From contig OZ243938.1 in the NCBI GenBank assembly GCA_965214095.1, positions 206,482 to 270,481 of the forward strand: a stretch of 64,000 nt of DNA, given 5' to 3'. Each line of letters starts with the position of its first letter. Within the stretch, counting starts at the first letter, position 1. The notes below the pieces were generated by a model. The model searched no databases and was not told the origin of the DNA. It saw nothing but the letters and a program-made list of their open reading frames with translations. Shown here one piece after another: positions 34,584 to 56,021 of this stretch. The DNA comes from Candidatus Poribacteria bacterium (GTDB taxonomy: Bacteria; Poribacteria; WGA-4E; WGA-3G). The translations under genes were made by a program, and so were the position numbers.

Positions 34584-36529
34584 ACCCAGAACCCGTAGGT
34601 CGGTATTCCACCGATAATTCCGATAATTGTCCAGATACTTCCAATTGTGAACTCACCAAGGATTAAACCTAAAAAGAATGGGGCTACCTTCCGATACCTT
34701 ACGGGTCCACCATATTTTAGAATGATTAATTTGATAAGCCAACTCATGAATAAACAACCCCAAGTAACGTTCATACCCCAACTTGTTGAAATGGCAAATC
34801 CTGCTGGATGAAAGGGCCACCAAACAAACCGCATTCTAAATAGCATCAAAAAGGTTGTCATCAAATACCCGAACACTGTAAAAGCAGTTTCAGGAACAAG
34901 TGTCCCAGTTGGTGATTGTAACCAACCTGTGAGTCTTCTGTAAGGTTCAATACCGAAAGCACTCAAGGATGGTGAAGGGGCACGAACTTCCATACCTAAC
35001 TGATAACCTCGGTCAATTAATGCCCAGAATCCTGCTAAAGAACCTAATGCAGCTGCAAACATCAATGCAAAAACAATGCGTCGCATTGACATATTCGTCC
35101 GTTCTATTATCTTGAAACCTTCCAATTGATGGGGCATCGGGTGGCTGCGGTAGGCACGGTTGATAAACCAAAACAGTGAGAACATCACAAGGTTTTCTCT
35201 GCCTAACTTACGGGTACCCACAACTCTTGTTAGGATCTGATCAGGGCCCGCATAATGAAGATCGTGAACAGGTGTTCCTAACTCAGCACGCATGCGTGTG
35301 ATAGCAATAGAAATCATATAATAAATTACAAAGAAAACAAACATAATACCGATGTTTGCACCACCGTAGTAACAAAATACGACCAAGAATAATATTGCCA
35401 TGATCAATCCGAATACTGCACCTCTATACGAAAGTGGGCCCTCTTTTGCTTGTGAGTTGTCTCTACTAAAAATCATCCGCCCAACCCAAAGCAGATGTCG
35501 TCTACTTGCCCAAATAGCAAGAACGCACAATGCAAGATACCCACCAGACGCTTGCTCGTTAAGATATGGGAATCTTGGTAGACTTCTAAATCCGAACATC
35601 GCTCCAACGACACGCAATATCCGCCAATACCAGAAGAAAAACCAACAGGAAAATGAAAGGTCAAGAGGAATAAAAAAACCGAGTCCAATTGCAAATGGAT
35701 ATAGTGAAAAAGGGATATTACCCATCGCATTCCAAGGACTGTCAGTGAAAATTCGGTAACTCCGATTCCGGGTAGGTAACTCCGGAAAAAAAGGATACAA
35801 GAAACTTAACCCATTCCACAAGGCTAAACCACCTGCAATACAGAATCCCACCCACATAACCTTATTCTTAAAGAAGTTGTTATGGGCAGCACCAGTCAAT
35901 TGAAGCGGAAGATGGATTATCGGGTAGCTTAGTTTTTCATACTCTATCCACTGTTTTCTAATGATGATGTTGATGCAGAGCATACCAAATACTAATACAC
36001 CGATGAAGACTGTCCACCACAGAACGGGTGTTGCCCAACCGAGTAGCGTTTGATATGTATAGAGCGGTAAGTCACCTTCATAGTAACCCCGTAGTAATTC
36101 ACTGTTACGGACAGTAAGCCATTCCGGTAGATAAGGAAGGAACAGCTGCTGCCATTCATTCTCTGGAGTTGCGAAGCGAAACGCATGTCCCAACATCGGC
36201 ACTAATATCTCAAGCATATCGTGACCAGTAATTCCGGATGCAATAGAAAGCATCAAATAGACAACTACCAATTCACTCTGTGCTAATGCTAAAGGAGGGA
36301 GGACTCGTTTCAACAGTTGGTTGAGACCTATTATAACAAACAGAGAAAATATTACATTGAAAAAGAGGGAAATCGTGACAGGATGTCCTGAATAACGGAT
36401 TACCTCCATCTCAATCACCCAATAACAGTTGATCGGTATGAGGATGGCAGCGATAAGGATAGATTTGATAGTAACCCCGTGGGGAGGAATCTGTGAAGGA
36501 TTAAATGCCGGGGTCTGTTGTATTTCCAT
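34580..36529 (-). CDS. Polytopic integral membrane protein (649 aa), unknown family
   Basis: Many hydrophobic helices. Stop shares the TTAA tetranucleotide with the convergent ATPase-homolog stop. Confidence 0.6.
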   Translation of the reverse strand: MEIQQTPAFNPSQIPPHGVTIKSILIAAILIPINCYWVIEMEVIRYSGHPVTISLFFNVIFSLFVIIGLNQLLKRVLPPLALAQSELVVVYLMLSIASGITGHDMLEILVPMLGHAFRFATPENEWQQLFLPYLPEWLTVRNSELLRGYYEGDLPLYTYQTLLGWATPVLWWTVFIGVLVFGMLCINIIIRKQWIEYEKLSYPIIHLPLQLTGAAHNNFFKNKVMWVGFCIAGGLALWNGLSFLYPFFPELPTRNRSYRIFTDSPWNAMGNIPFSLYPFAIGLGFFIPLDLSFSCWFFFWYWRILRVVGAMFGFRSLPRFPYLNEQASGGYLALCVLAIWASRRHLLWVGRMIFSRDNSQAKEGPLSYRGAVFGLIMAILFLVVFCYYGGANIGIMFVFFVIYYMISIAITRMRAELGTPVHDLHYAGPDQILTRVVGTRKLGRENLVMFSLFWFINRAYRSHPMPHQLEGFKIIERTNMSMRRIVFALMFAAALGSLAGFWALIDRGYQLGMEVRAPSPSLSAFGIEPYRRLTGWLQSPTGTLVPETAFTVFGYLMTTFLMLFRMRFVWWPFHPAGFAISTSWGMNVTWGCLFMSWLIKLIILKYGGPVRYRKVAPFFLGLILGEFTIGSIWTIIGIIGGIPTYGFWV

Positions 36530-37697: not shown

Positions 37698-38468
37698 TTG
37701 ATGCGGTTTGGAATATGCACAGGTTTAGATAATGTGAATCGTCTTGCTGAAGTCGGATATGATTATATTGAATTGGGTGTGAGAAGTGCGTTGATGCCCG
37801 AAGCAGATGAGACAGAATTTGAAAAAATAAGAGAACGTGTAACTAATGCACCTATAAAACCTGAAGCTTATGCAGGTTTTATTCCCAGAGATATTCGGGT
37901 CGTCGGGGACTCCGTGGATTTTACAAGACTTTCTCGGTATGTAGAAAATGCATGTCGCAGAGCAAAACAAATTGGTGGTAAAGTTATCGTATACGGTAGC
38001 AGTGGTTCTCGGAATGTTGAAGATGGATATTCTGAAGAACGTGCATTAACACAGATCGCAGAATTCCTTGATATGTCAGCAGATCATGCTGAAGACAACG
38101 ATATGATAATTGCTATCGAACCGATTTGTATGAAAGAGGGGAACATATTACGGACGGTTGCTGACGGTCTTGCAATGGCGAAACGGGTCAATAGGTATGG
38201 AATAAAGGTATTGGCAGATCTCTATCACGTTTGGCAAGAGGACGAACCTATGCAGAACATCGTTGATGCGGCATCATATTTGGCACATGTCCATATTGCT
38301 GAACCCGTCAAAAGATCATATCCCGGTAGCGATGATTTTGATTTTTCAGAGTTCTTTGCCGCATTAAAGAATGCGGGATACAACGGTCGGGTCTCATGTG
38401 AATGCAAATTTGACGATTTTGAGGCTGACATTGAAACTGCTTTGAAAACGATGAAGAGTTATACATGA
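37698..38468 (+). CDS. Sugar phosphate isomerase/epimerase (xylose isomerase-like TIM barrel)
   Basis: AP-endonuclease-2 / TIM-barrel pattern with conserved E...H...E. Confidence 0.55.
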   Translation: MMRFGICTGLDNVNRLAEVGYDYIELGVRSALMPEADETEFEKIRERVTNAPIKPEAYAGFIPRDIRVVGDSVDFTRLSRYVENACRRAKQIGGKVIVYGSSGSRNVEDGYSEERALTQIAEFLDMSADHAEDNDMIIAIEPICMKEGNILRTVADGLAMAKRVNRYGIKVLADLYHVWQEDEPMQNIVDAASYLAHVHIAEPVKRSYPGSDDFDFSEFFAALKNAGYNGRVSCECKFDDFEADIETALKTMKSYT

Positions 38469-40436: not shown

Positions 40437-41288
40437 TTATATGAATCGATTTTTGTGCGGACTTGTATTCCATTGTCTTTGCCATTCCTTCCATGATGTC
40501 GGACATTGTTTATTGTCCTTTTCTCGGACAGGACAGGCAATCGCCTCATGCCAAAGTCCATCTAACGATGTACCTGTGCGGCTATAGCGAAAGTCAACAG
40601 ACCAACGTATCGTCCCACTAATGTTCAGCAAAGAGCGGTGAAACACAAGATTGTTGAAAATCAGGAGATCACCTTTATTCATCTCTAATGTGTCAATGTC
40701 AATATTTGATGAAGTGGGAGAGATAACCGGTACAGCAAATGCCTCACCTTCAACGCGATGGTAGGATTTTAGTCCTTCTTTATGGCTTTTTGGCAAAAAT
40801 TGCAATGCACCGTTTTCGGTTTTCACATCGACTAATGGAAGCCATACTGTAAGGTGCATATCGTGTTCAGTGTGTGGCATGTAGGCACTGTCTTGGTGCC
40901 ACGGGAGGGTCGTAAGTTTTTCATTGGGTAATTTTGGACGCACCCAAAAATCACCGTTGAATTGAATCTCATTTCCAATCAGTGTTTCAATTATATCCAA
41001 CACTTTTCGGTTTGTTATCAGGTTGAAAAGTGCTTCACTATATACAAACGTATGCCACCCGAATACCTCGTTTTCTTTGCCACAATCCTGAAGAACAGCA
41101 TACCATCGTTTATCAAACGGCATATCTTCATATACGGTTGTGATGGTTCCAGTACTATACTTTTCACGTGTGCGTTTGTCAACAACTTCATCAATGATAT
41201 TGACTAATGGATCCAAATCTTCTGAGTTCAGTGCAGCAGGCACAACAAGATAACCATTCTCGACGAATATGTCTAAATGTGATTTCAT
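40437..41288 (-). CDS. PhyH-family dioxygenase
   Basis: LPWHQDSAY...H pattern. Confidence 0.7.
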   Translation of the reverse strand: MKSHLDIFVENGYLVVPAALNSEDLDPLVNIIDEVVDKRTREKYSTGTITTVYEDMPFDKRWYAVLQDCGKENEVFGWHTFVYSEALFNLITNRKVLDIIETLIGNEIQFNGDFWVRPKLPNEKLTTLPWHQDSAYMPHTEHDMHLTVWLPLVDVKTENGALQFLPKSHKEGLKSYHRVEGEAFAVPVISPTSSNIDIDTLEMNKGDLLIFNNLVFHRSLLNISGTIRWSVDFRYSRTGTSLDGLWHEAIACPVREKDNKQCPTSWKEWQRQWNTSPHKNRFI

Positions 41289-41449
41289 ATATTAGTAATG
41301 AGTCTTTATGCTGCTCCAAGTAGTTGTGAGTTTGCCACTCGGCTTGACTGACAATGGATCCATAGAATCTTCAATCGATATCACATCGTTCCAAAGGACA
41401 ACTACATCAACAACACCGGCATAGAAGTTCTGACCATTTCTATAAGTAT

Positions 41450-41477
41450 CCATAGCCAAATAAGCAATTGGCTATGG
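41450..41477 (-). terminator. 11-bp perfect inverted repeat ccatagccaat / attggctatgg downstream of paralog 1
   Basis: Read directly. Weak U-tract. Confidence 0.3.
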
Positions 41478-41488
41478 ACTCATACTTG

Positions 41489-42526
41489 TTATAGACGTTC
41501 CCTCAACATATCCATGAGACCGTCAGGTGGATCAAATGGTAGTTCTACTACTTCGTTTGTAATTCCACTATAATATATGCCGAGTAGTAGATTGAATTCA
41601 GCCAACGATTGTTTTAGGTGTGTTGGATGTTCATTCTTTTCATCGTCTAGCCAATCAAAGACTGCATTCGTGAGATTACCTTGTGCCATAACATCTTGCT
41701 CTCCATAGCTGAGTGGTCCACCTTCATAACCTCCATCTCTTGTGGATCGTTCCCAACTACTAAATCGCCAATGAACATAGCCATCTTCACCGATTACAAA
41801 GACTCGTTTGTGGAAGAAAACCGTCTGATCATCGGATGCAGAAGGTGCGATTGCTGTGCCAAACGCAACTGAGACATGTATTCCGTTTTCATATTGAACA
41901 CGAGCGGCAGCGAATTGCGGTGATGGTTGCGCAGAATCTAAATGTGCTCCACCTGATATTTGTCCCAATACGCGTACCGGACGAGAGTTATCAATGTAAG
42001 ATGACACTAACTGAAGGACATGTGGACCTTGATCAACAGGTGTGCTCCGTGCACTTGCATCTATAAACTTGATTTCACCGATTTTTCCATCTGCGACATC
42101 TTTCTTTAGTTCCAAGTTTTGTGGGTGAAAGTTCAATTGGGTATTCACAACAAATTTGGTTGTTGTCTCTTCTGCCAAACCGGCGATCTGTTTCCAGTCT
42201 TCACTTTCAACAGCAATAGGTTTCTCAACGATTGCAGCTGGAACGCCATGGTCGGATGCTTGTTTCATGAGCGGATAACGGATACGTTCATTAGATCCGC
42301 GAAGAACTGGCGCGGTGACAATGTGGAGAACATCAGGTTTTTCTTTTTCAAGCATCTCATCTAAATCCGTGTAGCGAGATGAGATATTGAAATCGTCTCC
42401 AAATCGGTTGAGTAGTTCTTTGTTCATATCACAGACGGCAGCAAGTTTGCCACCTTTTACAAAACGGTATGCATCTGCATGTGCACGTGCACGACCTCCA
42501 CAACCTAATATCGCTGTCTTATACAT
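41489..42526 (-). CDS. Gfo/Idh/MocA-family oxidoreductase, tandem paralog 1 (variable loop TAIAPSASDDQTVFF)
   Basis: MYKTAILGCGGRARAHA Rossmann fold, EKP motif, VDQGPH. TAAGGAGAT SD. Confidence 0.75.
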   Translation of the reverse strand: MYKTAILGCGGRARAHADAYRFVKGGKLAAVCDMNKELLNRFGDDFNISSRYTDLDEMLEKEKPDVLHIVTAPVLRGSNERIRYPLMKQASDHGVPAAIVEKPIAVESEDWKQIAGLAEETTTKFVVNTQLNFHPQNLELKKDVADGKIGEIKFIDASARSTPVDQGPHVLQLVSSYIDNSRPVRVLGQISGGAHLDSAQPSPQFAAARVQYENGIHVSVAFGTAIAPSASDDQTVFFHKRVFVIGEDGYVHWRFSSWERSTRDGGYEGGPLSYGEQDVMAQGNLTNAVFDWLDDEKNEHPTHLKQSLAEFNLLLGIYYSGITNEVVELPFDPPDGLMDMLRERL

Positions 42527-42584
42527 TGATTATCTCCTTAAACTATTTATAAAGGGTTATGTGTTGTTTGAACTATAATAATTA

Positions 42585-42616
42585 ACGGCAGTTGTGTATA
42601 TATACTCAACTGCCGT
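42585..42616 (-). terminator. 10-bp inverted repeat acggcagttg / caactgccgt between paralogs 2 and 1
   Basis: Read directly. Confidence 0.3.
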
Positions 42617-42648
42617 ATAAACTATCAATTGCGTAGCAACAAGAGATA

Positions 42649-43686
42649 TTATAGATGTTCCTTCAGTGAAGCCATTAATCCATCCGGCGGATCAAATGGT
42701 AGGTCAATTATCTCATTGGTTATTCCACTGTAGTAAATGCCTAATAGCAAATTGAATTCTGCCAGTGATTGTTTGAGATGTGTTGGATGCTCTTTCTTCT
42801 CATCATCAAGCCAGTCAAATGCAGCCTCAGTGAGATTCCCTTGTGCTTGAATGTCCTGCTCACCGTAGTTGAGGGGTCCGCCTTCGTAGCCGCCATCATG
42901 AGTTGAACGTTCCCAACTGCTGAACCGCCAATGCACAAAACCTTTTGTACCAACAACGAAAACGCGTTTGTGAGCAACAGTACTACCACTGTCGGATGCC
43001 AACGTCCCCATACCCGTGCCAAACGCAAGAGAGACATGTAGACCATTGTCATAAATTGCCTGTCCTGCAGCATGCATCGGAGAGGGTTGTGCGGAATCTA
43101 ACTGCTCTCTCCCCGCAATTTGTCCTAACACTCTTGTCGGACGTGAGTTGTCAATATATGATGATACCAACTGCAATACATGCGGTGCTTGATCAACAGG
43201 GGTGCTGCGTGCACTTGCATCAATAAACTTGATCTCACCGATTTTCCCATCTGCAACATCTCGTTTCAGTTCAAGGTTTCTGGGGTGAAAGTTAAGCTGT
43301 GTGTTGACAATAAACTTCGTATTCGTTTCATCTGCCAATCCCGCAATCTGTTTCCAGTCTTCACTTTCAACGGCAATCGGTTTTTCAACGATTGCAGCAG
43401 GAACATTATGATCTGATGCTTGCTTCATCAATGGATAACGAATTCGTTGATTGGTTCCACGTAAAACTGGTGCGGTGACAATGTGAAGCAGGTCTGGTTT
43501 CTCTTTCTCAAGCATTTCATCAAAATCTGTGTAGCGAGAAGAGACATCAAAATCATCTCCGAACTTATTGAGTAACTCTTCGTTCATATCGCATATAGCA
43601 CCGATTTTACCGCCTTTTACAAAACGGTATGCACTTGCATGTGCACGTGCCCGACCACCACAACCTAAAAATGCACTTTTATACAT
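42649..43686 (-). CDS. Gfo/Idh/MocA paralog 2 (variable loop TGMGTLASDSGSTVA)
   Basis: Start trimmed to MYKSAF (AAGGAGAAATTCT-ATG). Otherwise collinear with paralog 1. Confidence 0.75.
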   Translation of the reverse strand: MYKSAFLGCGGRARAHASAYRFVKGGKIGAICDMNEELLNKFGDDFDVSSRYTDFDEMLEKEKPDLLHIVTAPVLRGTNQRIRYPLMKQASDHNVPAAIVEKPIAVESEDWKQIAGLADETNTKFIVNTQLNFHPRNLELKRDVADGKIGEIKFIDASARSTPVDQAPHVLQLVSSYIDNSRPTRVLGQIAGREQLDSAQPSPMHAAGQAIYDNGLHVSLAFGTGMGTLASDSGSTVAHKRVFVVGTKGFVHWRFSSWERSTHDGGYEGGPLNYGEQDIQAQGNLTEAAFDWLDDEKKEHPTHLKQSLAEFNLLLGIYYSGITNEIIDLPFDPPDGLMASLKEHL

Positions 43687-43812
43687 AGAATTTCTCCTTC
43701 TATAGTTTAATACCATGTGTAGTGAAATGTGTCTACACATATATGTGATAGATAGCGGTAGCGCGAGTATCTCTACTACTACCACTAAACCAATATGTTT
43801 GGTTTATTCATT

Positions 43813-44856
43813 CTACAACTTTTCTCTAAGTAAATCAATTAATCCATCAGGAGGTTCAAATGGGAGATCAACAACTTCATTCGTAACGCCGCTATAATAG
43901 ATCCCTAAGAGCAGATTGAATTCAGCGAGGGATTGCTTGAGATGTGTGGGATGCTGGTTCTTTTCATCATCTAACCAATCAAAAACAGCTTCTGTTAAGT
44001 TTCCTTGTGCTTGCACATCTTGTTCCCCATAATCAAGCGGACCATTCTCGTAACCACCATCATGCGTTGACCGTTCCCAACTACTAAATCGCCAATGCAC
44101 AAAACCTTTCGTCCCAACAACAAAAACGCGTTTGTGCGTATGATTACCCCCATCAGGTTCTCTCGGAACTTTCTGACCAACACTTGCACCAAATGCAAGT
44201 GAAACATGTAATCCGTTCTCGTATATAACTTGTGCAGCAGCGTGCATTGGAGAGGGTTGGGTGGAGTCCAAATCCTGAGCACCAGAAACCTGTCCGAGTA
44301 CTCTTACAGGACGAGAGTTGTCAATATACGATGACACGAGTTGTAGGACATGCGGTGCTTGGTCTACGGGTGTGCTTCTGGCACTTGCATCAATAAACTT
44401 GATATCTCCGATTTTACCTTCCGACACATCTCTCTTTAATTCTAAGTTCTTTGGATGAAAATTGAGTTGTGTATTGACAACAAACTTCGTTTGAGTTTCT
44501 TCTGCTAAACCTGCAAGCTGCTTCCAGTCTTCGCTTTCTACAGCAATCGGTTTCTCAACGATTGCAGCAGGTACACCGTGGTCAGATGCTTGTTTCATCA
44601 GAGGATAACGGATACGTTGATTTGTACCACGCAATACTGGTGCGGTGACAATATGGAGCAGATCAGGTTTCTCCTTATCCATCATTTCGTCTAAATCTGT
44701 ATAGCGCGAAGAAATATCAAGATCATCACCGAATCGATTTAGCAGTTCTTCATTCATGTCGCAGATGGCAGCTATCCTACCACCTTTAACGAAACGGTAT
44801 GCATCTGCATGAGCACGTGCACGACCACCACACCCTAAAAACGCACTTTTATACAT
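43813..44856 (-). CDS. Gfo/Idh/MocA paralog 3 (variable loop ASVGQKVPREPDGGNHT)
   Basis: Start at MYKSAF, preceded by GGGAG. Confidence 0.75.
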   Translation of the reverse strand: MYKSAFLGCGGRARAHADAYRFVKGGRIAAICDMNEELLNRFGDDLDISSRYTDLDEMMDKEKPDLLHIVTAPVLRGTNQRIRYPLMKQASDHGVPAAIVEKPIAVESEDWKQLAGLAEETQTKFVVNTQLNFHPKNLELKRDVSEGKIGDIKFIDASARSTPVDQAPHVLQLVSSYIDNSRPVRVLGQVSGAQDLDSTQPSPMHAAAQVIYENGLHVSLAFGASVGQKVPREPDGGNHTHKRVFVVGTKGFVHWRFSSWERSTHDGGYENGPLDYGEQDVQAQGNLTEAVFDWLDDEKNQHPTHLKQSLAEFNLLLGIYYSGVTNEVVDLPFEPPDGLIDLLREKL

Positions 44857-44963
44857 AGAAAAGACTCCCATCATGTTTTGTGATTTTTAAATTCAATGAT
44901 GATGTTACGGTATGTTCTGAATTTCATACACCTTATTTCGGTGAGGTTAGGAATCCTAACCGA

Positions 44964-45869
44964 TTATTCTGAGTATTCATCCAATATTTTTCTGAAGTCG
45001 TCAAGATTTTCAACAACAATTGCAGCACGATGCAAATTCTCAAGGATTTCCAGGTCCTCAATCTTTTCCAGTACAGACTTGAATGAATGTTCAGTATCGA
45101 TTTCTAATCGTAGTGAAAGTATTTCAAGAATGAGTTTTCGCGTTGTTTCCTGAGCACCTTGCTGTAAACCTTGCTGTTTTCCCTGTTCACGTGCTTGAGG
45201 TGCTACGTATTCTACAATTGGAGGCTGTTGCATGGTCTCCTCTCCTATGATATTGATAATAGTTTGTGAGTCGTGAACTAAATTCCCCAAAATTACAAGA
45301 CTTCCAAGATATTCCGTTTTGTTCCGAACATCCAAACTGTCTGCTGTCTGAATACACTTCCTAAGCCATTCCTCATCATTAATCTCTGGATCGTGTTTCA
45401 TGAGCGGTGTGAATGGTATTAAACCTACATTTTTCTGATCTAGTATCTGTTGTCCATCAACTTCACTTAAACGGAAGACTTGATATTCAATGAATATGTT
45501 GTGATTTTCCAGATTTTATTCAAATATTCCAGGATCGTTTCTCCCTGCATTAGGACCTAAGTAAATGACATTGGAATATACTGGAAGACGATGGATTTCT
45601 ATTGATCTGATAATATAGCCTGCCATCCTTAGTGGCATCTCTGGATCATAACTATCAGTAGTTTGAAACTCAAAATGAATCAGAATTTCTCTACCGTCAT
45701 GTAGTGCCTTAATAAGAGTATCTGCTTGATGCATTTCCACTTTAGGTTGTTCAGGTATAATTACCTCCAGAACATTGATGTCTGTTGTATCAAATTTAAA
45801 GCATAAGTCTACGAAATCTTGAGGATTTGTTTCAACCTGTTTTTTAGATGCAGTGTCAAAACTCGCCAT
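44964..45869 (-). pseudogene. Rpn/YhgA-like (PD-(D/E)XK, transposase_31 family) recombination-promoting nuclease, interrupted by a single in-frame TAA at 45516-45518
   Basis: ORFs 45516-45869 (…ILIHFEFQTTDSYDPEMPLRMAGYI…) and 44964-45401 (Gln/Gly-rich QGKQQGLQQGAQE then a DUF4351-like tail) share one frame. The 114 nt between them are open. Combined length ~301 codons. Confidence 0.5.
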
Positions 45870-45953
45870 CTTTCTCCTATCTCTATGATGTATATTATTT
45901 GAAATTATATCATGTGTATGTTTTATTTTCCAATTTTGGATATATTTGTCAGT

Positions 45954-46991
45954 TTACAATTTTTCTCTAAGTAAATCAATCAGTCCATCTGGTGGATTGA
46001 AAGGTAAATCTATAATCTGATTGGTGATGCCGCTATAGTACATTCCCAATAATAAATTAAACTCAGCAAGTGATTGTTTTAGGTGTGTTGGATGAACTTT
46101 GTTTTCATCGTCCAACCAATCAAATACTGCATCCGTAAGATTTCCTTGTGCCTGGACATCCTGCTCGGGGTAACTAAGATGACCTGATTCATAACCAGTG
46201 ATTTGTGTTGAGCGTTCCCAACTGCTGAACCGCCAATGCACAAAACCTTTTGTACCTACAACAAACACACGTTTATGTCTGAAATTCGCAGGTCTATCGG
46301 AAACTTTTGCACCCATTTCTGTGCCAAAAGCAACGGAGACGTGAAGACCATTTTCATACAGAACATGTGCTGCTGCGTGCAAAGGTGATGGTTCATCTGA
46401 ATCTAAACGATCTCCTCCTGAGATCTGTCCAAGTACACTCACAGGTCGAGCGTTATCAATATATGATGATACCAATTGAATTACATGAGGTCCTTGGTTT
46501 ACAGCGGTATTGCGAGCACTTGCATCAATGAATCTAATCTCACCAATTTTGCCATCTGCAACATCTTGCTTTAGTTCAATGTTTTTCGGATGGAAGTTCA
46601 GTTGTGTGTTGACAACAAATTTTGTATGAGTGACTTCTGCTAATCCGGCAATCTGATTCCAGTCACCGCTATCAACAGCAATCGGTTTTTCAACAATTGC
46701 AGCAGGGACTCCGTGGTCAGATACCTGTTTCATCAGAGGATAACGGATATATTGATTAGTGCCGCGTAATAGTGGAGCAGTGACAATATGAAGAAGATCA
46801 GGTTTTTCTCTTTCAAGCATCTCATCTAAATCGGTATAGCGTGCAGAGATATCAAAGCGATCACCAAAATCGTTCAGACGTTCTTCGTTCATATCGCAGA
46901 TGGCTGCGAGTTTACCATGTTTAACAAAACGATAAGCACCAGCATGTCCACGTGCCCGACCACCACACCCCAATATGGCACTCTTATACAT
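45954..46991 (-). CDS. Gfo/Idh/MocA paralog 4 (variable loop TEMGAKVSDRPANFR). DxxxH is NxxxH here.
   Basis: Collinear with the other paralogs. Reads VNQGPH where they read VDQ[GA]PH. Confidence 0.75.
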   Translation of the reverse strand: MYKSAILGCGGRARGHAGAYRFVKHGKLAAICDMNEERLNDFGDRFDISARYTDLDEMLEREKPDLLHIVTAPLLRGTNQYIRYPLMKQVSDHGVPAAIVEKPIAVDSGDWNQIAGLAEVTHTKFVVNTQLNFHPKNIELKQDVADGKIGEIRFIDASARNTAVNQGPHVIQLVSSYIDNARPVSVLGQISGGDRLDSDEPSPLHAAAHVLYENGLHVSVAFGTEMGAKVSDRPANFRHKRVFVVGTKGFVHWRFSSWERSTQITGYESGHLSYPEQDVQAQGNLTDAVFDWLDDENKVHPTHLKQSLAEFNLLLGMYYSGITNQIIDLPFNPPDGLIDLLREKL

Positions 46992-47038
46992 AGATGTGTC
47001 TCCTAATCATTCTATTCTGGACGTACATATAAATAATA

Positions 47039-47089
47039 ATTAGCGGTAGGTGTAAACAAACTCACTGCTACCGCTAATTCTTTTTTATT
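47039..47089 (+). terminator. 11-bp inverted repeat attagcggtag / ctaccgctaat followed by TCTTTTTTATT on the plus strand and preceded by an A-tract. Possible bidirectional terminator between paralogs 5 and 4.
   Basis: Hairpin plus T6 read directly. Flanking genes are minus-strand. Confidence 0.35.
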
Positions 47090-47106
47090 AGAAATCAAAA
47101 ATCGTT

Positions 47107-48144
47107 CTACAATTGCTCCCTGAGAGAATCAAATATATTATCAGGCGGATCAAAAGGTAAATCTATCATATTCTTCGTAATACCACTTTGATAAATACCT
47201 AAGAGTAGATTGAATTCTGCAAGTGATTGTTTGAGATGTGTTGGATGTACATTCTTCTCATCATCAAGCCAATCAAAGACGGCTTCAGTAAGGTTGCCTT
47301 GTGCCTCAACATCTTGTTCACCATAGTTGAGAGGACCACCCTCATATCCACCATCGTGTGTTGAACGTTCCCAACTACTAAAACGCCAATGCACAAACCC
47401 TTCTGTGCCGACTACAAAAACACGTTTATGACAATAAATTCCCTGATTATCAGATGCCATAGTACCCATTCCTTGTCCAAATGCGACAGAAACGTGTAAT
47501 CCATTTTCATATAAAACCTGTGCGGCAGCGTGCATTGGAGAAGGTTGAGCAGAATCTAAATGATCTCTCCCTGCGATTTGACCTAAGACACGCGTCGGAC
47601 GAGAATTATCAATATATGATGATACTAACTGTAACACATGTGGACCTTGATCTACAGGAGTGCTTCGTGCACTTGCATCTATAAACTTAATGTCTCCAAT
47701 CTTACCATCTGCAACATCGCGTTTTAGTTCAAGGTTCTTGGGATGAAAGTTGAGTTGTGTGTTGACGACAAACTTTGTATTCGTTTCTTCTGCCAATCCA
47801 GCGATCTGCTTCCAATCATCGCTTTCAACAGCAATCGGTTTCTCTACAATTGCTGCCGGCACTCCGTGGTCAGAAGCTTGCTTCATCAGAGAGTATCGTA
47901 TTCTTTCATTTGAACCGCGTAAAACGGGTGCGGTGACAATGTGTAGTAGATCCGGTTTCTCTTTATTGAGCATTTCATCCAAATCCGTGTATCTTGAAGA
48001 GATTTCAAATCTATCACCGTAGGCATTGAGTCGTTCCTCGTTCATATCACAGACGGCTGCAAGTTTTCCATTCTTAACAAAGCGATAGGCACTTGCGTGA
48101 CCACCTGCACGTCCGCCGCACCCTAACATCGCACTTTTATACAT
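47107..48144 (-). CDS. Gfo/Idh/MocA paralog 5 (variable loop QGMGTMASDNQGIYC)
   Basis: AAGGAGA SD. Collinear with the other paralogs. Confidence 0.75.
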   Translation of the reverse strand: MYKSAMLGCGGRAGGHASAYRFVKNGKLAAVCDMNEERLNAYGDRFEISSRYTDLDEMLNKEKPDLLHIVTAPVLRGSNERIRYSLMKQASDHGVPAAIVEKPIAVESDDWKQIAGLAEETNTKFVVNTQLNFHPKNLELKRDVADGKIGDIKFIDASARSTPVDQGPHVLQLVSSYIDNSRPTRVLGQIAGRDHLDSAQPSPMHAAAQVLYENGLHVSVAFGQGMGTMASDNQGIYCHKRVFVVGTEGFVHWRFSSWERSTHDGGYEGGPLNYGEQDVEAQGNLTEAVFDWLDDEKNVHPTHLKQSLAEFNLLLGIYQSGITKNMIDLPFDPPDNIFDSLREQL

Positions 48145-48207: not shown

Positions 48208-49242
48208 TCAAATGTAAACTTTCTCGCCACTCTTGGCACTATCGTAAAGAGCATCCAGTATCTGCATAAAAGTAAATGCATTAGAAGCGTTCACATCAGG
48301 AGCGACTTCACCCGCTATTGCCATAGCAAAATGATTGAGTTCATAGAAGAAAACAGGAACATTTTCGGGAAGTTCACCGTGGTCAATTTCTATATGTTCT
48401 TCAATCGACTCTCGGCTAAATTCTCCATCTTTAAAACGCGAGATACCGCCGCTTGTAATTGCCCCTGTTGTACCGTAGAGTTCCACAACACTCCCAGAAT
48501 CAGAATGGCTCATGCGGGAACAGTCTATCTGAATTGTTTTGCCATCTTCACATCCGAGAATACCTGTGAAATAGTCTTCAGATGCACCTTCTGGACCTTC
48601 ATATTGTGGGTACAACACATGCTTTGAAGCGAATGCCCACATCGGTTTTGGACATCCCATCCACCACCACGTCAGATTAAGTTCGTGTGAATAGTGCTGA
48701 CCTAATGAACCGCCCTTTTGACCGTAAACATGTAGCCATCTATTGTTCTCGTCAAGAGGAGGAATAAAGTTGAATTTTCCAAACACACGTGCATGGTATG
48801 GCGTTCCAATGGCACCGTTTTGAATTGCAGTACGAATCTGGCGATTATGTGGAAAGTGCCGCATAAAGTAACAGAATTGGAGTGTCATACCAGACTTCTC
48901 TGCTGCTGATTCCATTTCTAATATTTCTTGCGCACGGATAGCATGTGGTTTTTGGACTAAGACATGTTTACCTGAGTCTAAAGTATCCAAGACTTGTTGA
49001 AGTCTGACATCTGGAGATGTAGCAAGATAAACTGCATCAATAACTGGATTGTCAAGAAGTTCACGATAGTCATTGTAACGGTGTGGAACTGCATTGTCAT
49101 CACCTGCTTGTTTTAGTCTATTTGGATCGCGATCTGCGATTGCACTGACGTTGAGTCGTGATGTTGCATTTGCAGATTCTATCGCTCTACAACCTGCCCA
49201 TCCACATCCTACAACTCCAAGCTGGATTGTATCATTGTTCAT
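48208..49242 (-). CDS. Gfo/Idh/MocA family oxidoreductase (distinct from the array paralogs)
   Basis: Start trimmed to MNNDTIQLGVVGCGWAG, preceded by GTGGAGAT; the longer ORF overlaps the upstream SBP gene. Confidence 0.7.
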   Translation of the reverse strand: MNNDTIQLGVVGCGWAGCRAIESANATSRLNVSAIADRDPNRLKQAGDDNAVPHRYNDYRELLDNPVIDAVYLATSPDVRLQQVLDTLDSGKHVLVQKPHAIRAQEILEMESAAEKSGMTLQFCYFMRHFPHNRQIRTAIQNGAIGTPYHARVFGKFNFIPPLDENNRWLHVYGQKGGSLGQHYSHELNLTWWWMGCPKPMWAFASKHVLYPQYEGPEGASEDYFTGILGCEDGKTIQIDCSRMSHSDSGSVVELYGTTGAITSGGISRFKDGEFSRESIEEHIEIDHGELPENVPVFFYELNHFAMAIAGEVAPDVNASNAFTFMQILDALYDSAKSGEKVYI

Positions 49243-49270
49243 AAACATATCTCCACATTCACCCATGATA

Positions 49271-50461
49271 TTACGGTTCAACAACCTTGTAATGTTCAAC
49301 TTCCCCATTTTGGATTGTCTGAATTGCAAGACTTTTTACCGGATGTCGATTTTCATCATAATGGGATATAGATGTCGCACCTTTGTAATTTTGGACTGCT
49401 GCATAAGCATCACGAACAGTAACCGGATCAAGTGAACCTGCAGTCTCAATCGCACGGGCTAAGAGACGCATAGCATCATAACCGGAGGCTGCAATGCCAT
49501 CAGGTGGACTTTCATACAAAGCCATATAATCTTGGACAAATTCCTGCACATCTTCATCCTGAGTAGCAACAGAAAAATTGGTCGGATAATAACTACCATC
49601 CAAAACCATATTATCCTCTAAAATACCGAGGAATCGTTCTCTGTCATCCCAAGCACTACCACCGAGAAATGTGGCGTTGAGTCCGAGTTGACTCGCCTCA
49701 TTAATCAACTTTGGCACTTCTGGTTGGGAACCTGGACAAAAGATGACATCTGGCATTTCACTTTGTATATCAGCAAGTAGTTCAGTAAACGAAGTTTCAT
49801 CTGTTGCATAAGAACCGCTGTGAACGATTTGTCCACCAATTTCCGCAAATGCTGCCTCGAAGGCTTGAACGAGATCAATAGAATAATTGTCACCTTCTTC
49901 ATAGATTGTTGCTGCAGTTTGTGCACCAATTTCTTCAGAATTTATAGCAAAACTTGCCATGACTTTCCCTTGAAATGGATTAGGTACAGTGATTAAAAAG
50001 ACATAATCACCCGTTTCTGGTACACTTGAACCACTGGATCCGGGCAACATGAGTCTTTGAGTTTGCTGTGCTATTGGACCTACTTCTACAGCCATCGTTG
50101 AGCGGACAGGTCCGAGAAGTGCAAATACGTTCTCCATTTCAATCAGTTCTTTTGCGGCATTGATGCTTGATTCCGATGTTGGCTCTTCTCCTGCTACAGG
50201 TTGATTATTTCGTGATATGAATTCGACCTGCATACCTAATACGCCGCCATTTTCATTAATCTGGATACGAGCAGTTTCCGCACCTTGACTAAATGTGGTA
50301 TAACTATGAGCAGGCTGGATGACTCCAATTTTTACGGGGGTTTCCATCGTAGGAGTGGTATTGTCTGAGATTACTTTATTAACTCTTTCACATCCAAATA
50401 ATGCTACACTTAGCACTGCCAATAGTATGACCAAAATCAAGTTTTTCTTTATTGTATTCAT
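49271..50461 (-). CDS. ABC-transporter substrate-binding lipoprotein (LivK / Peripla_BP_6-like)
   Basis: Lipoprotein signal (ALFGC) and type-I periplasmic binding fold. No permease or ATPase genes adjacent. Confidence 0.65.
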   Translation of the reverse strand: MNTIKKNLILVILLAVLSVALFGCERVNKVISDNTTPTMETPVKIGVIQPAHSYTTFSQGAETARIQINENGGVLGMQVEFISRNNQPVAGEEPTSESSINAAKELIEMENVFALLGPVRSTMAVEVGPIAQQTQRLMLPGSSGSSVPETGDYVFLITVPNPFQGKVMASFAINSEEIGAQTAATIYEEGDNYSIDLVQAFEAAFAEIGGQIVHSGSYATDETSFTELLADIQSEMPDVIFCPGSQPEVPKLINEASQLGLNATFLGGSAWDDRERFLGILEDNMVLDGSYYPTNFSVATQDEDVQEFVQDYMALYESPPDGIAASGYDAMRLLARAIETAGSLDPVTVRDAYAAVQNYKGATSISHYDENRHPVKSLAIQTIQNGEVEHYKVVEP

Positions 50462-51761: not shown

Positions 51762-51808
51762 TACCAACTCTGAAAGTTAAAGTTGCATTAGGAATTTCAT
51801 TAATCGTC
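51759..51808 (+). repeat. Family-3 post-stop repeat, short form (ataccaactctgaaagttaaagttgcattaggaatttcattaatcgtc)
   Basis: Near-identical to 31651-31700. Confidence 0.55.
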
Positions 51809-52564
51809 AAAAAACATTTCTAACTTAGCCCGTGCGTTTAAGACACCCTTTACAATCGGTTGGGGTGACTCCACCTTGAGTCCTAAATAAATCAACATAA
51901 TCTCCCGCTCGTAACCTATTCTTTGAATCTCCTTACAGATAGCATGAAAATCCATTTCTGGTGCCCAGAACGGCTCGCTTCCAGTCTCCGAATCGACACC
52001 GCAGTTGAAATAGACGTTATTTAACCGTTCTGACAAAGTTCTTAGTGCAATCACAGGATCATCTCCTGCCAAATGAAAATGAAATGGACTGTAGTAAAAT
52101 CCAAAATTATCTTCAGATATTGCATCAAAGATTTGCTGTGTGCGTTCAAGGTTGAACGCGAGACTCCCTTCATGTGCATATAACGAGAGCATCAAATTAC
52201 GAGATTTCGCTTCTATTGTGAGTGTTCTAAGCAGATCAATTATCTTATCAATCTCATTATCAGTGGCATCTTCCGTTCCACCACTTGCGACGCTAACTAT
52301 TGGAACAGACAATCTTTTTGCAATGTCAAGAATAGAGATTTGAGATTCAAATCCATCGACCGCGTCAATCTTAACTGTACTCAGTAAAGATTTGAAATAT
52401 AACCCAGTCTCTTCTTGGAGTGTACCGATTGTTTCTGCTTCAACATCTGAGAAATGGGTTTGTGAGAGTTCAATTGCAGATACACCGCCCTCGGATAATT
52501 CACCTACAAACTCTGTTAATGGATATGGGGAGAATGGTAATGTGCTTGCACAGTAAGTTCTCAT
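51800..52564 (-). CDS. Putative xylose-isomerase-like TIM-barrel protein
   Basis: Weak pattern similarity only. Confidence 0.35.
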   Translation of the reverse strand: MRTYCASTLPFSPYPLTEFVGELSEGGVSAIELSQTHFSDVEAETIGTLQEETGLYFKSLLSTVKIDAVDGFESQISILDIAKRLSVPIVSVASGGTEDATDNEIDKIIDLLRTLTIEAKSRNLMLSLYAHEGSLAFNLERTQQIFDAISEDNFGFYYSPFHFHLAGDDPVIALRTLSERLNNVYFNCGVDSETGSEPFWAPEMDFHAICKEIQRIGYEREIMLIYLGLKVESPQPIVKGVLNARAKLEMFFDD

Positions 52565-52795: not shown

Positions 52796-53572
52796 CTACT
52801 TACCCATTTCCTTGAGTGCTTTCAAACAACGTTCTACTGCTTCTAAAGGTGGAAATGCATCACTTTCATATTCCACAATATACCATTCTGTGCCACCGGT
52901 GGTTTCGCAGATATTAAAGATTTCAGTCCAAGGAACACTGTCTTCTCCAATAATGGGACGAAAACCAGCGTGTCTCTCAGATTCATCATCTGAGATTGTA
53001 TAAGGTTTGAGATGGACAGTGCCAGAACGTCCTGGATATCTTTCCAAAATGTCCACGAGATCAGCACCACCTGACATTGCATTTCCCATATCCAGCTGCA
53101 TCACAACACCTTCATTTGTGTTTCCAAAGAAGGTATCCCATTGGACTTCACCATCCATCGGTGAAAATTCTACGTGATGGTTATGGTATCCAGTAACCAT
53201 TCCGTGTGGTGCCAGCTTATCTGCGAGGTCATTAAAAAAATCTGCTAATTTTAACCAATCCGCGCGGGATTGACGTAGTTCACCCGGTATTCCTGGAATA
53301 ATGACATACCTATTCTCAAGTATTTTATTGAATTCAATCGTGTCTGCAAGTGAGTCTTCTTGTACAAGGTTGAATGGTGTATGCCATCCACAGCAGACTA
53401 TTCCGAATTCGTCAAGGTAACCTTTCAACTCCTCTGCAGGATGTTGTGGGGGACCAGCGAATTCTACACCTTCATATCCCATTTCTGCGACAGCTTTAAT
53501 CGTGCCGCGTGCATCATCAGCTAACTCATTTCGGACTGAAAATAGTTCTAAACCAATTGGTACTCGTGCCAT
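52796..53572 (-). CDS. Sugar phosphate isomerase/epimerase (xylose isomerase-like TIM barrel)
   Basis: LELFSVRNELADD...GYEGVEF N-terminus. Confidence 0.65.
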   Translation of the reverse strand: MARVPIGLELFSVRNELADDARGTIKAVAEMGYEGVEFAGPPQHPAEELKGYLDEFGIVCCGWHTPFNLVQEDSLADTIEFNKILENRYVIIPGIPGELRQSRADWLKLADFFNDLADKLAPHGMVTGYHNHHVEFSPMDGEVQWDTFFGNTNEGVVMQLDMGNAMSGGADLVDILERYPGRSGTVHLKPYTISDDESERHAGFRPIIGEDSVPWTEIFNICETTGGTEWYIVEYESDAFPPLEAVERCLKALKEMGK

Positions 53573-53667: not shown

Positions 53668-55092
53668 TCATCGGGCATTGTAATTCGGTTCAAGAGGACA
53701 GATCTTGTGGTGCTGAATGAGTGCAATCCTTGCTAAACCGTGAATTAAAAACGCCGGACACAACTGTGATTCATACCAGTCAATTCCCGATGCACCGAAC
53801 GGTAGGTTCTCTTTAAAATATACTTCTAATGCAGTTTCAGCAAGTTTGATCCCACCTTCTAACCAGATTGACTCTTCTGTGATGTCATATAGATCAGCAA
53901 AGAGTTCAAGTGCTAACCCTATATCAGTCACTGGAATCTTAAAACCTTCACTGAGAACACGTTCAACAGGGAATTCCTCATCAAGATATGTATTACCAAC
54001 TGCCTGCGCATAATCCATCAATCTGTGATCATGTGTCAACCGCCATGCACAGAGAGAAAGCACGCCACTTCCACATGAAGTTCCAGCACCATAGACGCTA
54101 CCCCACGCCAACATTCTCTCAACAACCTGATTTGTTTCACATTGGCATAAACTCACAAACTCGCGAGTCTCAAGATTATGTGGAGCTGCAAGAAAACCTT
54201 CAATATAAACTCTCCCGTATTGGCACATCTTGCTTGCTAAATTTGGAAGGTAAGATTCTAACAAGGCCGCAGATTCAATAAGACTAATTCCTAATGAAAG
54301 CGTTTGCGTTGGGGCATTTATATTGAAAAACCTTTCATTTTCTAATGGTGAACGGCTTTCAATACACAATAAACCTTGTTCGTCTCGTTTCTCCCACCAG
54401 TATTCTGTATACTTCTGTATCTGTTGTAGAGTTTCAGAACGTTGATTCTTGGTATACGCGAATGCTAAATCAAAGATGTAGAAGCCAGAATGTCGGGGAA
54501 AATCACATGAACGACCTCCGCGGATAAGATGTTCCTTCTTGTCAATGTTCGCATGACGTATGTATTCAAGCTCATCACCCTCTGTCCAATGATAATCCAG
54601 ACCATCAGCAAAACTTTGGACACATGAGGCGTTGAATGTGTTCAGTTTTTCCCACATCCACAATGGTACCTTGCGAAGATGATCGTGAATCGCTGAACCA
54701 CCATCAGGATTGCGCGAACATCCTACACGTTCTTCAATCAAATGCCAAAACGAATGTTCTCCCCATGGGAATAGACCGGTCTCTGTCTGTGTGCAATTCA
54801 GTGCAAAGTACTCAAAATATCGATCCACTGCATCCTTATATATTGATTTCGATTCAGTTTCTGAAAGGACATTCATCGTGGCAAGTAATGGTTCATCATG
54901 TATTAGATTGCATCCCAAATGTGCACGATCACCATTTCGTTGACCTGGAATCTTTGAAGGCTTATCCAAAAGCATTCGACCTGATTTTGCATTCAGTATT
55001 GATGGGAATAGTCCATTGTATTCAATACTGCATTCTATTATCAGATCAATTGCATTACATGTTTTAGTGATGATGACATCTGGAGTTATCAC
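53668..55092 (-). CDS. Hypothetical protein, possibly (alpha/alpha)6 six-hairpin glycosidase-like
   Basis: Trp-rich repeated helical hairpin pattern. No confident family. Confidence 0.3.
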   Translation of the reverse strand: MITPDVIITKTCNAIDLIIECSIEYNGLFPSILNAKSGRMLLDKPSKIPGQRNGDRAHLGCNLIHDEPLLATMNVLSETESKSIYKDAVDRYFEYFALNCTQTETGLFPWGEHSFWHLIEERVGCSRNPDGGSAIHDHLRKVPLWMWEKLNTFNASCVQSFADGLDYHWTEGDELEYIRHANIDKKEHLIRGGRSCDFPRHSGFYIFDLAFAYTKNQRSETLQQIQKYTEYWWEKRDEQGLLCIESRSPLENERFFNINAPTQTLSLGISLIESAALLESYLPNLASKMCQYGRVYIEGFLAAPHNLETREFVSLCQCETNQVVERMLAWGSVYGAGTSCGSGVLSLCAWRLTHDHRLMDYAQAVGNTYLDEEFPVERVLSEGFKIPVTDIGLALELFADLYDITEESIWLEGGIKLAETALEVYFKENLPFGASGIDWYESQLCPAFLIHGLARIALIQHHKICPLEPNYNAR

Positions 55093-55208: not shown

Positions 55209-56021
55209 ATGGAGATAGTTATGTACATTGGTCTTATGGAGGGAACGATTCGACGTGACACACTTGGAGAAACATTGGATGCTACGGTTGAATATGGAAT
55301 TTACCATTTACAATACCATATTAACCCCGCGATATCTGTCAATGATGTACGTCAAGAAATGGATGAACGACAGTTACAGATTGTGGCACTCTCGGGGACA
55401 TATAATATGATTGATCCTGATATTCAAAAACGTGACGCTGGATTGCAAATGTTACGTTATGTCGCTTCCCAATGTGAATCCCTTGGAACATCTGTGATTA
55501 CACTCTGCACTGGTTCTCGGGATCCGCATAGTATGTGGCGGGCACATCCTGATAATAACTCTGAGTCTGCTTGGCAAGACCTTGTGCAGTCCATGCAAAA
55601 GGCATTGAAAATTGCTGAAGAATTCAGTGTGACATTGGCATTTGAACCTGAGATATCTAATGTGATTGACTCCGCACAAAAGGCACGTCGTTTACTGGAT
55701 GAGATGAGTTCTCCGTACCTAAAAGTTGTTATGGATGGTGCCAACATATTTCATAAAGGTGAGTTACCAAAGATGCGCGAAATTCTAGACGAAGCATTCG
55801 CATTACTTGGTGATGACATTGCACTTGCCCATGCTAAGGACTTAGACCGAGATGGTCATGCAGGTAATCTTGCTGCAGGTACTGGTCTACTGGATTTCAA
55901 TCAATATATCGGTTTGTTAAATGAAGTTGGTTATGACGGTGCTGTCGTGTTACACGGTTTGTCTGAAGAACAAGTCCCATTTTGTGTTAACTTCCTACAA
56001 GGGAAAATTGATGCGTTGTAA
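55209..56021 (+). CDS. Sugar phosphate isomerase/epimerase (xylose isomerase-like TIM barrel)
   Basis: AFEPE...D...H pattern. Confidence 0.6.
   Translation: MEIVMYIGLMEGTIRRDTLGETLDATVEYGIYHLQYHINPAISVNDVRQEMDERQLQIVALSGTYNMIDPDIQKRDAGLQMLRYVASQCESLGTSVITLCTGSRDPHSMWRAHPDNNSESAWQDLVQSMQKALKIAEEFSVTLAFEPEISNVIDSAQKARRLLDEMSSPYLKVVMDGANIFHKGELPKMREILDEAFALLGDDIALAHAKDLDRDGHAGNLAAGTGLLDFNQYIGLLNEVGYDGAVVLHGLSEEQVPFCVNFLQGKIDAL

Follow-up and report, generated by a model that had tools for sequence, protein, structure and literature searches.

A tandem array of ancient Gfo/Idh/MocA dehydrogenase paralogs in Poribacteria that differ mainly in one loop conserved within each paralog class

The DNA analyzed here, referred to as the window, is a stretch of 64,000 nucleotides from a Candidatus Poribacteria bacterium (assembly GCA_965214095.1, contig OZ243938.1, positions 206,482 to 270,481) and contains a tandem array of five genes, g1 to g5, which encode dehydrogenases of the Gfo/Idh/MocA superfamily. 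The five proteins are ancient duplicates that differ mainly in a single loop, and each version of this loop is fixed and maintained by selection as the signature of one old paralog: The loop versions form classes that are conserved under purifying selection (Table 1), and the genes flanking the array are syntenic (Table 2). The pattern is one of classical sub- or neofunctionalization after tandem duplication and not of an active diversification mechanism. It is probably best explained by a subfunctionalized array of nicotinamide adenine dinucleotide (NAD)-dependent sugar- or cyclitol-type dehydrogenases, in which the loop—a putative counterpart of motif V of related enzymes—and the strand 205–212 would tune the pocket toward distinct glycan-derived substrates.

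All five proteins match the Gfo/Idh/MocA Rossmann domain above the gathering score (PF01408, with E-values of 7.8e-16 and 2.5e-15). They feature the glycine-rich Rossmann motif, the EKP lysine, and the two-domain fold of the superfamily; the DxxxH motif is present in four copies and modified in g4. As judged by the list of open reading frames (ORFs) and the alignment, each protein consists of 345–347 residues and all genes lie on the minus strand. A reading of the window made from its letters only, hereafter the sequence-only reading, had described five consecutive same-strand paralogs with a large majority of identical residues, a common MYK[ST]A[ILFM]LGCGGRA start, an EKP motif, a VDQ[GA]PH motif, and an AAGGAG-type Shine–Dalgarno sequence in front of each gene. 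The ORF calls and the alignment bear out the five same-strand paralogs and their similarity, with pairwise identities of 77–83% for the protein and 73–76% for the nucleotide sequence and 226 of the 347 alignment columns invariant. The common start is seen in all five copies, G8-C-G10-G11-R-A13 being invariant. E101-K102-P103 is invariant in g1–g5 as well, and equally so in 46 clade members and in a 143-sequence alignment that includes distant relatives. Other parts of the description apply to some of the copies only. The genes are on the same strand but not strictly consecutive, since an ORF of approximately 301 codons with one in-frame stop separates g3 from g4. The full AAGGAG precedes g1, g2, and g5, whereas g4 has TAGGAG and g3 has GGGAG. 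VDQ[GA]PH is found in g1, g2, g3, and g5, whereas g4 reads VNQGPH. The true start of g2 is the MYK ATG preceded by the AAGGAG Shine–Dalgarno sequence and not the upstream GTG; the MYK start of g3 was chosen by homology, with an alternative ORF start lying 18 nt upstream.

The loop comprises residues 224–238 and has a length of 15–17 residues, the longest version being that of g3 with 17. The sequence-only reading had transcribed its five sequences correctly and had regarded it as the main site of difference between the copies, which holds: The top 15-column variability window of the alignment is the loop, with a score of 32 that none of 20,000 column permutations reached (highest score 25; p < 5e-5), and the second-ranked window among g1–g5, at 192–209, scores 15. 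Between paralogs of the same locus, the loop is approximately 30% identical and the rest of the protein approximately 84%. The loops end in IYC, VFF, TVA, NHT, or NFR and are followed by HKR, the H-K-R being invariant.

The duplications that gave rise to the copies are old. The pairwise synonymous divergence (dS) among the five copies ranges from 1.9 to 3.3; synonymous sites are thus saturated, which makes the duplications ancient, and they are older than the divergence of the sampled Poribacteria. The ratio of nonsynonymous to synonymous divergence (ω) between the copies is about 0.03–0.08, in agreement with the strong purifying selection that had been proposed for the genes outside the loop, and their protein identity of approximately 80% is the outcome of such selection on old duplicates and not of recent duplication. 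Because dS is saturated, the ratio of nonsynonymous to synonymous divergence (dN/dS) between copies is uninformative. This applies to the loop too, for which the sequence-only reading had expected excess nonsynonymous change: The proportions of nonsynonymous (pN) and synonymous (pS) differences between g1–g5 are about equal there, 0.37–0.75 versus 0.41–0.78, and both are saturated. The dN/dS within orthogroups was used instead, based on 76 related loci from approximately 70 Poribacteria genomes (GTDB species genomes), from which 269 genes of the family were extracted.

Within a class, purifying selection on the loop is about as strong as on the rest of the protein. The within-class ω is 0.012–0.25 for the loop and 0.026–0.107 for the rest, with a pS of 0.32–0.50 and 0.44–0.47, respectively. 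For pairs that are at least 94% identical outside the loop, a comparison that avoids circularity, ω is 0.03–0.07 for the loop versus 0.02–0.03 for the rest. The locus closest to the window is L001 (OY282386.1). Between the window and the closest genome, at an overall pS of 0.30, pN is 0.017 in the loop versus 0.015 in the rest, and three of the five loops are unchanged. Excess nonsynonymous change in the loop is hence found neither between orthologs nor against the closest genome, and the focal diversification that had been proposed is not supported as an ongoing process, the duplications being old. The term hypervariable, used for the loop in the same proposal, does not apply in a population or species sense, since the same loop types recur in approximately 70 genomes and are conserved within their class; the apparent hypervariability arises from the comparison of old paralogs inside one genome.

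All 76 loci, like the best-matching database proteins, come from metagenome-assembled or single-cell genomes of Poribacteria. Over these genomes, the loops of the family sort into a few discrete classes, five of which are present in the window array and at least eight across the phylum. Some 15-residue loops (e.g., TAIAPTASDDPVVFF and TGMGTLASDSESTVA) are identical in dozens of species, and the loop of g5 is also present in the orthologs of many Poribacteria genomes. The class of the loop goes along with the sequence of the remaining protein: The identity outside the loop is 0.92–0.93 within a class versus 0.82–0.88 between classes, and the nearest neighbor in another genome, as determined with the loop masked, has a mean loop identity of 92%. 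The arrays hold one to five genes, always on the same strand, and many genomes carry only two to three loop classes. The order of the classes is partly conserved, with A2-B-C-D, A2-C-B-D, A2-A3-C-B-D, and A1-E-C-B-D as recurrent orders, the last being that of the window. The flanks are syntenic in approximately 50 of the 76 loci, in the arrangement luciferase-like monooxygenase/binding protein–second dehydrogenase–array–PhyH.

Table 1. Loop classes of the dehydrogenase family with their consensus sequences and the window gene carrying each
Class	Loop consensus	Window gene
A1	QGMGTMASD.QGIYC	g5
A2	TEMAQ.ASDDPGIYG	none
A3	TGMGT[MT]ASDNPGIYG	none
B	TGMGTLAS[DE]..[SG]TV[AT]	g2
C	..GQ[KR]VPKEPD.GNHT	g3
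D	TAIAP[TS]ASDD.[VT]V[FY]F	g1
E	..GAKVS.RPANFR	g4
F	ADIAPRASDSDS.VA	none

A few loci depart from these arrangements. The gene at the last array position of L068 (10001–11038) carries TAIAPTASD of class D fused to NPGIYG of class A3, and the gene at that position of L076 (9980–11038) carries an A3-like loop where class D is expected. Such chimeric or swapped loops are rare and point to occasional recombination between paralogs inside the loop. In at least one complete genome (OZ244889.1), the family is split over two loci approximately 2 Mb apart (L055 and L072). One locus holds classes B and C and the other holds A1 and E, which shows that the genes of the array can become separated.

The classes differ at further positions. 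In total, 17 columns are conserved within but differ between classes: eight are located in 225–238, five in 199–211, and the remaining ones are 6, 18, 273, and 317. D165-Q-G/A-P-H169 is located at the start of the helix 163–177 in g1, g2, g3, and g5; g4 carries N165 and keeps H169, and the D165N exchange is found in 20 of 21 class E orthologs. Class A2 often features a Glu at position 165 (AEQGGH), e.g., in L026 (4995–6038). These D165N and Glu variants suggest altered catalysis in some classes. With the second cluster at 199–211 and D165N in g4, the differences between the copies extend beyond the loop, and a catalytic-motif residue is changed in at least one class. Between the classes, near-identity is seen for the cofactor site, the EKP lysine, and the greater part of the fold.

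The structure of the g5 protein was modeled with AlphaFold2. With a shallow alignment of 46 sequences, the C-terminal domain was poor, at a predicted local distance difference test score (pLDDT) of 64. The model was rebuilt on 143 sequences by adding relatives of 50–57% identity from other phyla, retrieved by a profile search, and reached a pLDDT of 96 and a predicted template modeling score of 0.92, with the Rossmann strands and helices above a pLDDT of 90. It features the canonical Gfo/Idh/MocA fold—two domains, the C-terminal one an α/β domain with a large open sheet—with fold matches that are at most 23% identical. In this model, the loop region 223–240 forms a long coil, broken by a single short turn of helix, between the strands 217–222 and 241–246. 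Its pLDDT of 93–95 indicates that it is ordered, unlike a floppy linker. The class-specific residues 207, 209, and 211 alternate along the strand 205–212, which adjoins the strands flanking the loop.

The loop was placed relative to characterized enzymes by a two-step alignment. In hhalign, the family segment '...HVSVAFG-[loop]-HKRVFVVGTEG' is matched with '...IQIDCS-RMSHSDSGS-VVELYGTTG' of the neighboring dehydrogenase (48208–49329), with a 7-residue insertion in the family. The neighboring dehydrogenase in turn aligns to 3ezy (segments '...AVYGYDQRIEVFGSKG' and '...IDNSRRAVYGYDQRIEVFGSKG'), in which YGY constitutes motif V of inositol dehydrogenases. By these two steps, the array loop is 7–8 residues longer than its motif V counterpart. 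In IolG of Bacillus subtilis, Y235 of the motif V residues Y233-G-Y235 binds the substrate, and a Tyr versus His, Arg, or Lys at this position discriminates between inositol dehydrogenase specificities (PMC9603128). The pocket of DgpA draws on residues of the DxxxH helix and the following strands, F223 and E264 lying downstream of that helix (PMC9939296), and in scyllo-inositol dehydrogenase, loops of the C-terminal domain gate and complete the pocket (PMC5969746). The variable loop of the array would thus appear to be an elongated counterpart of the pocket-forming, specificity-marking motif V loop.

Under the favored explanation, the loop would supply a substrate-contacting residue in the manner of motif V and would shape, together with the strand 205–212, the outer substrate pocket. 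The substrates of the five enzymes would be similar without being the same—most likely sugars or glycosides released from glycans of sponges or algae—and the oxidized products may feed the neighboring PhyH dioxygenase, the second dehydrogenase, and the TIM-barrel enzymes. In g4, where the Lys-Asp-His triad has its conserved Asp replaced by Asn, catalysis would be altered. A role of the loop as specificity determinant is plausible and the most likely reading, if not a proven one.

Several points weigh against this explanation. The register of motif V is uncertain by several residues, the array loop being longer, and the profile matches to solved structures are mostly confined to the N-terminal part (residues 1–155), 3ip3 alone weakly spanning the loop. 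No NCBIfam equivalog is reached, and the clade together with its relatives of 50–57% identity is without a member of known substrate. The loop segment also ranks second of 331 windows for variability in distant relatives, so part of the difference between the paralogs could reflect a generally tolerant region. The sequence-only reading had named equally variable segments in unrelated members of the family as a sign against a specificity loop, and this sign is partly present. Finally, the C-terminal sheet of Gfo/Idh/MocA proteins also forms oligomer interfaces (PMC5969746), which makes an interface role possible.

Such a role is the alternative that survives best, even if it is unlikely. The loop and residues 207, 209, and 211 would be located in the oligomer interface, where they would restrict each paralog to self-assembly or direct the formation of a defined hetero-oligomer, with substrate specificity being secondary. 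Gfo/Idh/MocA proteins oligomerize mainly via their C-terminal eight-stranded sheet, with loops that can reach neighboring subunits (PMC5969746), and the pocket of DgpA is occupied by a loop of the neighboring subunit (PMC9939296). The alternation of 207, 209, and 211 on one face of their strand is compatible with an interface, and the conservation of the loop within classes fits any functional role. However, the loop falls by homology on motif V, which is known to contact the substrate; the change in the catalytic motif of g4 points to divergence in chemistry; and the presence of only two to three classes in many genomes makes a fixed hetero-oligomer unlikely.

It is improbable that the loop instead serves as a docking surface through which each dehydrogenase is linked to its own downstream enzyme or regulator, such as a particular PhyH or a TIM-barrel lyase, so that the partner and not the substrate differs. 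A single PhyH gene is syntenic with the array regardless of the number of paralogs, the literature searched offers no precedent, and the homology to motif V favors a role in the pocket. The idea goes back to the sequence-only reading, which had named substrates or partners as the possible targets of the loop, and draws on an ordered loop that is conserved per class, on the large and diverse PhyH complement of Poribacteria (PMC3909097), and on the several TIM-barrel genes of the window.

A surface loop that tolerates exchanges and diverged between old paralogs by neutral drift, devoid of functional meaning, is very improbable. The near-equal pN and pS of the loop between the five copies look as they would in the absence of constraint, and the loop window is the second most variable one in distant relatives; yet within orthogroups, the loop ω is 0.01–0.25 while pS is normal (0.32–0.50), dozens of species share the same 15-residue loops, and the loop is modeled with high pLDDT.

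Two mechanisms of sequence exchange were considered and rejected. Gene conversion as the source of the similarity of the flanks is at odds with the lack of conversion tracts between the copies; the longest identical run is at most 44 nt, and the maximum identity between copies over 90 nt is at most 0.89. The synonymous divergence of same-locus paralogs (pS of 0.66–0.70) is only approximately 0.05 lower than that of paralogs from different genomes (0.71–0.77). A template as used by diversity-generating retroelements was sought as well, and the 64-kb window yielded no donor for the loop DNA; off target, the best match is 17 nt long. Of the marks of a diversity-generating system, neither a donor copy in the window nor excess nonsynonymous change is found, and the loops are identical or near-identical between species. 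The active change of the loop by ongoing diversifying selection or by targeted mutagenesis or a cassette mechanism of the retroelement or gene-conversion type, which could call upon the sharp contrast in identity between loop and remainder in same-locus paralogs and upon the rare chimeric loops such as that of L068 (TAIAPTASD+NPGIYG), is the least credible explanation of all, given the lack of excess nonsynonymous change within classes or against the closest genome, of a second copy of the loop DNA in the window, and of conversion tracts, and given a same-locus pS only marginally below that between genomes.

The characterized systems closest to the array are the inositol dehydrogenases. IolG and the seven inositol dehydrogenase paralogs of Corynebacterium glutamicum share the fold, the catalytic Lys (EKP), and the Asp/His (DxxxH) with the array proteins, and they too occur as several paralogs per genome, theirs differing in substrate preference; the variable loop of the array aligns to their motif V loop YGY233-235. 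In contrast, the array proteins are 15–19% identical to them, and their loop is 7–8 residues longer and ends in the invariant H-K-R. The C. glutamicum enzymes are mutually distant, whereas the array paralogs are approximately 80% identical, arranged in tandem, and form a Poribacteria-specific clade. The IolG equivalog TIGR04380 yields 48.3 bits compared with a cutoff of 355, over residues 2–160 only, and YGY is absent. The models of glycoside, levoglucosan, and disaccharide 3-dehydrogenases (NF052479, NF058561, and NF058563) yield 17–18 bits compared with 650.

DgpA-type glycoside 3-dehydrogenases (9m3d at an E-value of 6e-11, and 7xr9) are, together with 5uhw, the best sequence matches among solved structures and have a similar fold. 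The DgpBC, levoglucosan, and sulfoquinovosidase-type systems feature TIM-barrel lyase partners, and the neighborhood of the array is likewise rich in xylose-isomerase-like TIM-barrel genes. Unlike in a DgpA system, no DgpB/C-like pair is adjacent to the array, and the match to DgpA is essentially confined to the N-terminal domain and the DxxxH helix, at 21–23% identity. The closest solved structure, 5uhw, is an oxidoreductase of Agrobacterium radiobacter; at 20–21% identity, with a sequence alignment that covers residues 2–144 only, it allows for no functional transfer. The PhyH family is much expanded and diverse in Poribacteria, its functions being mostly unknown (PMC3909097). That expansion is dispersed and divergent, with 305 sequences in 193 clusters at 60% identity (PMC3909097), whereas the array is tandem, with few members of approximately 80% identity. 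A published description of the Poribacteria dehydrogenase array was not found in the literature searched.

Table 2. Coordinates of the array genes, their loop-coding segments, and neighboring features in the window
Feature	Positions	Strand	Remarks
g5	47107-48144	-	first array gene in transcription direction; loop class A1, QGMGTMASDNQGIYC; PF01408 E 2.5e-15
g5 loop DNA (residues 224-238)	47431-47475	-	
g4	45954-46991	-	most divergent copy; loop class E, TEMGAKVSDRPANFR; VNQGPH
g4 loop DNA	46278-46322	-	
Inserted ORF of ~301 codons	44964-45869	-	single in-frame stop at codon 118; outside the dehydrogenase family
g3	43813-44856	-	loop class C, ASVGQKVPREPDGGNHT; loop +2 residues
g3 loop DNA (17 residues)	44137-44187	-	
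g2	42649-43686	-	loop class B, TGMGTLASDSGSTVA; from ORF and alignment
g2 loop DNA	42973-43017	-	
g1	41489-42526	-	last array gene; loop class D, TAIAPSASDDQTVFF
g1 loop DNA	41813-41857	-	
PhyH-family 2-oxoglutarate/Fe(II) dioxygenase	40437-41288	-	PF05721 E 3.5e-24; directly downstream of the array; 54/76 loci
Canonical Gfo/Idh/MocA dehydrogenase (Gfo2)	48208-49329	-	PF01408, PF02894, PF22725; directly upstream of the array; 53/76 loci
Peripla_BP_6 solute-binding lipoprotein	49271-50461	-	PF13458 E 2.5e-46; upstream of the array; 47/76 loci
Xylose-isomerase-like TIM-barrel gene	37698-38468		
Xylose-isomerase-like TIM-barrel gene	51800-52564		
Xylose-isomerase-like TIM-barrel gene	52796-53572		
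Xylose-isomerase-like TIM-barrel gene	55209-56021		
Pectate-lyase-2-like protein and thiamine pyrophosphate (TPP)-dependent enzyme	53668-55092 and 56036-57676		

The neighborhood of PhyH dioxygenase, second Gfo/Idh/MocA dehydrogenase, and solute-binding protein that the sequence-only reading had recognized around the array is present, the last being a Peripla_BP_6 protein (Table 2). The second dehydrogenase, Gfo2, is only distantly related to the array genes, with a tblastn identity of 21–25% (about 22%). Its longest ORF starts with TTG and shares 59 nt with the end of the binding-protein gene; since its Rossmann domain begins at about residue 36, translation probably begins at an internal ATG (MFMNNDT... 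or MNNDT...). A luciferase-like monooxygenase is also found in the window around the array. The TIM-barrel, pectate-lyase-like, and TPP-dependent genes fit a dense carbohydrate or cyclitol catabolic neighborhood.

Relatives outside the Poribacteria clade are at most 57% identical. In the two that were examined, the gene is single-copy and lies in a glycan-utilization cluster. The first cluster comprises a LacI regulator, an ATP-binding cassette transporter, GH130, GHL6, and two α-L-fucosidases; the second comprises two sulfatases, a sugar-binding protein, and an alcohol dehydrogenase. This gene context hints at a sugar, cyclitol, or related substrate, although it is only suggestive. The loop of the outside relatives has 14 residues with the consensus xxAP[KR]A.D.ESIY.HKR, to which the loop of g1 (class D) is closest.

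A bolder version of the favored explanation takes the array, the binding protein, Gfo2, and PhyH as one Poribacteria-specific catabolic module. Each loop class would read a differently substituted (e.g., methylated, sulfated, or deoxy) sugar from glycans of the sponge matrix or of algae, the elongated motif V loop would be a "specificity cassette" that can be swapped, and D165N in class E and D165E in class A2 would stand for different chemistry. This version is doubtful; if it were true, the module would stand for a family of pathways not described before, and its enzymes would make up a natural series for loop engineering in the Gfo/Idh/MocA superfamily.

As for genetics, the array reveals no new mechanism: The known phenomenon is the divergence of enzyme paralogs at a substrate-pocket loop, here in a lineage-specific form. 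If the loop sets the specificity, the array represents a natural experiment with five to eight enzymes of approximately 80% identity that differ almost only in one ordered loop and its neighboring strand, and each loop variant is fixed throughout a phylum whose members are uncultivated symbionts of sponges. Enzymologists would then have a small set of natural loop swaps from which to understand and engineer specificity in this very large and poorly annotated superfamily, and sponge-microbiome research would gain a lead to the host- or algal-derived sugars that are consumed by Poribacteria.

The ORF inserted between g3 and g4 is a pseudogene in the window, as judged by its in-frame stop codon. 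It is intact elsewhere in Poribacteria—e.g., in L025 (9027–9905), where it encodes 293 residues—and its intergenic position within the array varies from genome to genome, at times with two copies (L020). Neither the window copy nor the intact ortholog matches a Pfam or NCBIfam family, apart from one subthreshold match to the Rpn family of recombination-promoting nucleases (E-value of 0.02). The ORF may be a mobile or recombination-related gene tied to rearrangement of the array.

Promoter and terminator scans of the array gave no enrichment above shuffled sequence. Each spacer 3′ of an array gene carries an inverted repeat with arms of 8–21 nt shortly past the stop codon (41449–41478, 42585–42616, 43715–43740, 44945–44961, and 47029–47088), followed on the coding strand by AT-rich sequence. 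The simple terminator scan did not flag these minus-strand hairpins; they may be intercistronic hairpins, acting as weak terminators or mRNA-stability elements.

Farther from the array, the window encodes a 649-residue protein on the minus strand (34580–36529) with DUF6785 (E-value of 1e-166) and DUF6784. Two weak similarities were observed by tblastn on the plus strand: a Gfo/Idh/MocA-like stretch at approximately 1204–1707 with 25% identity to Gfo2, and a PhyH-like stretch at approximately 20061–20645 with 21% identity.

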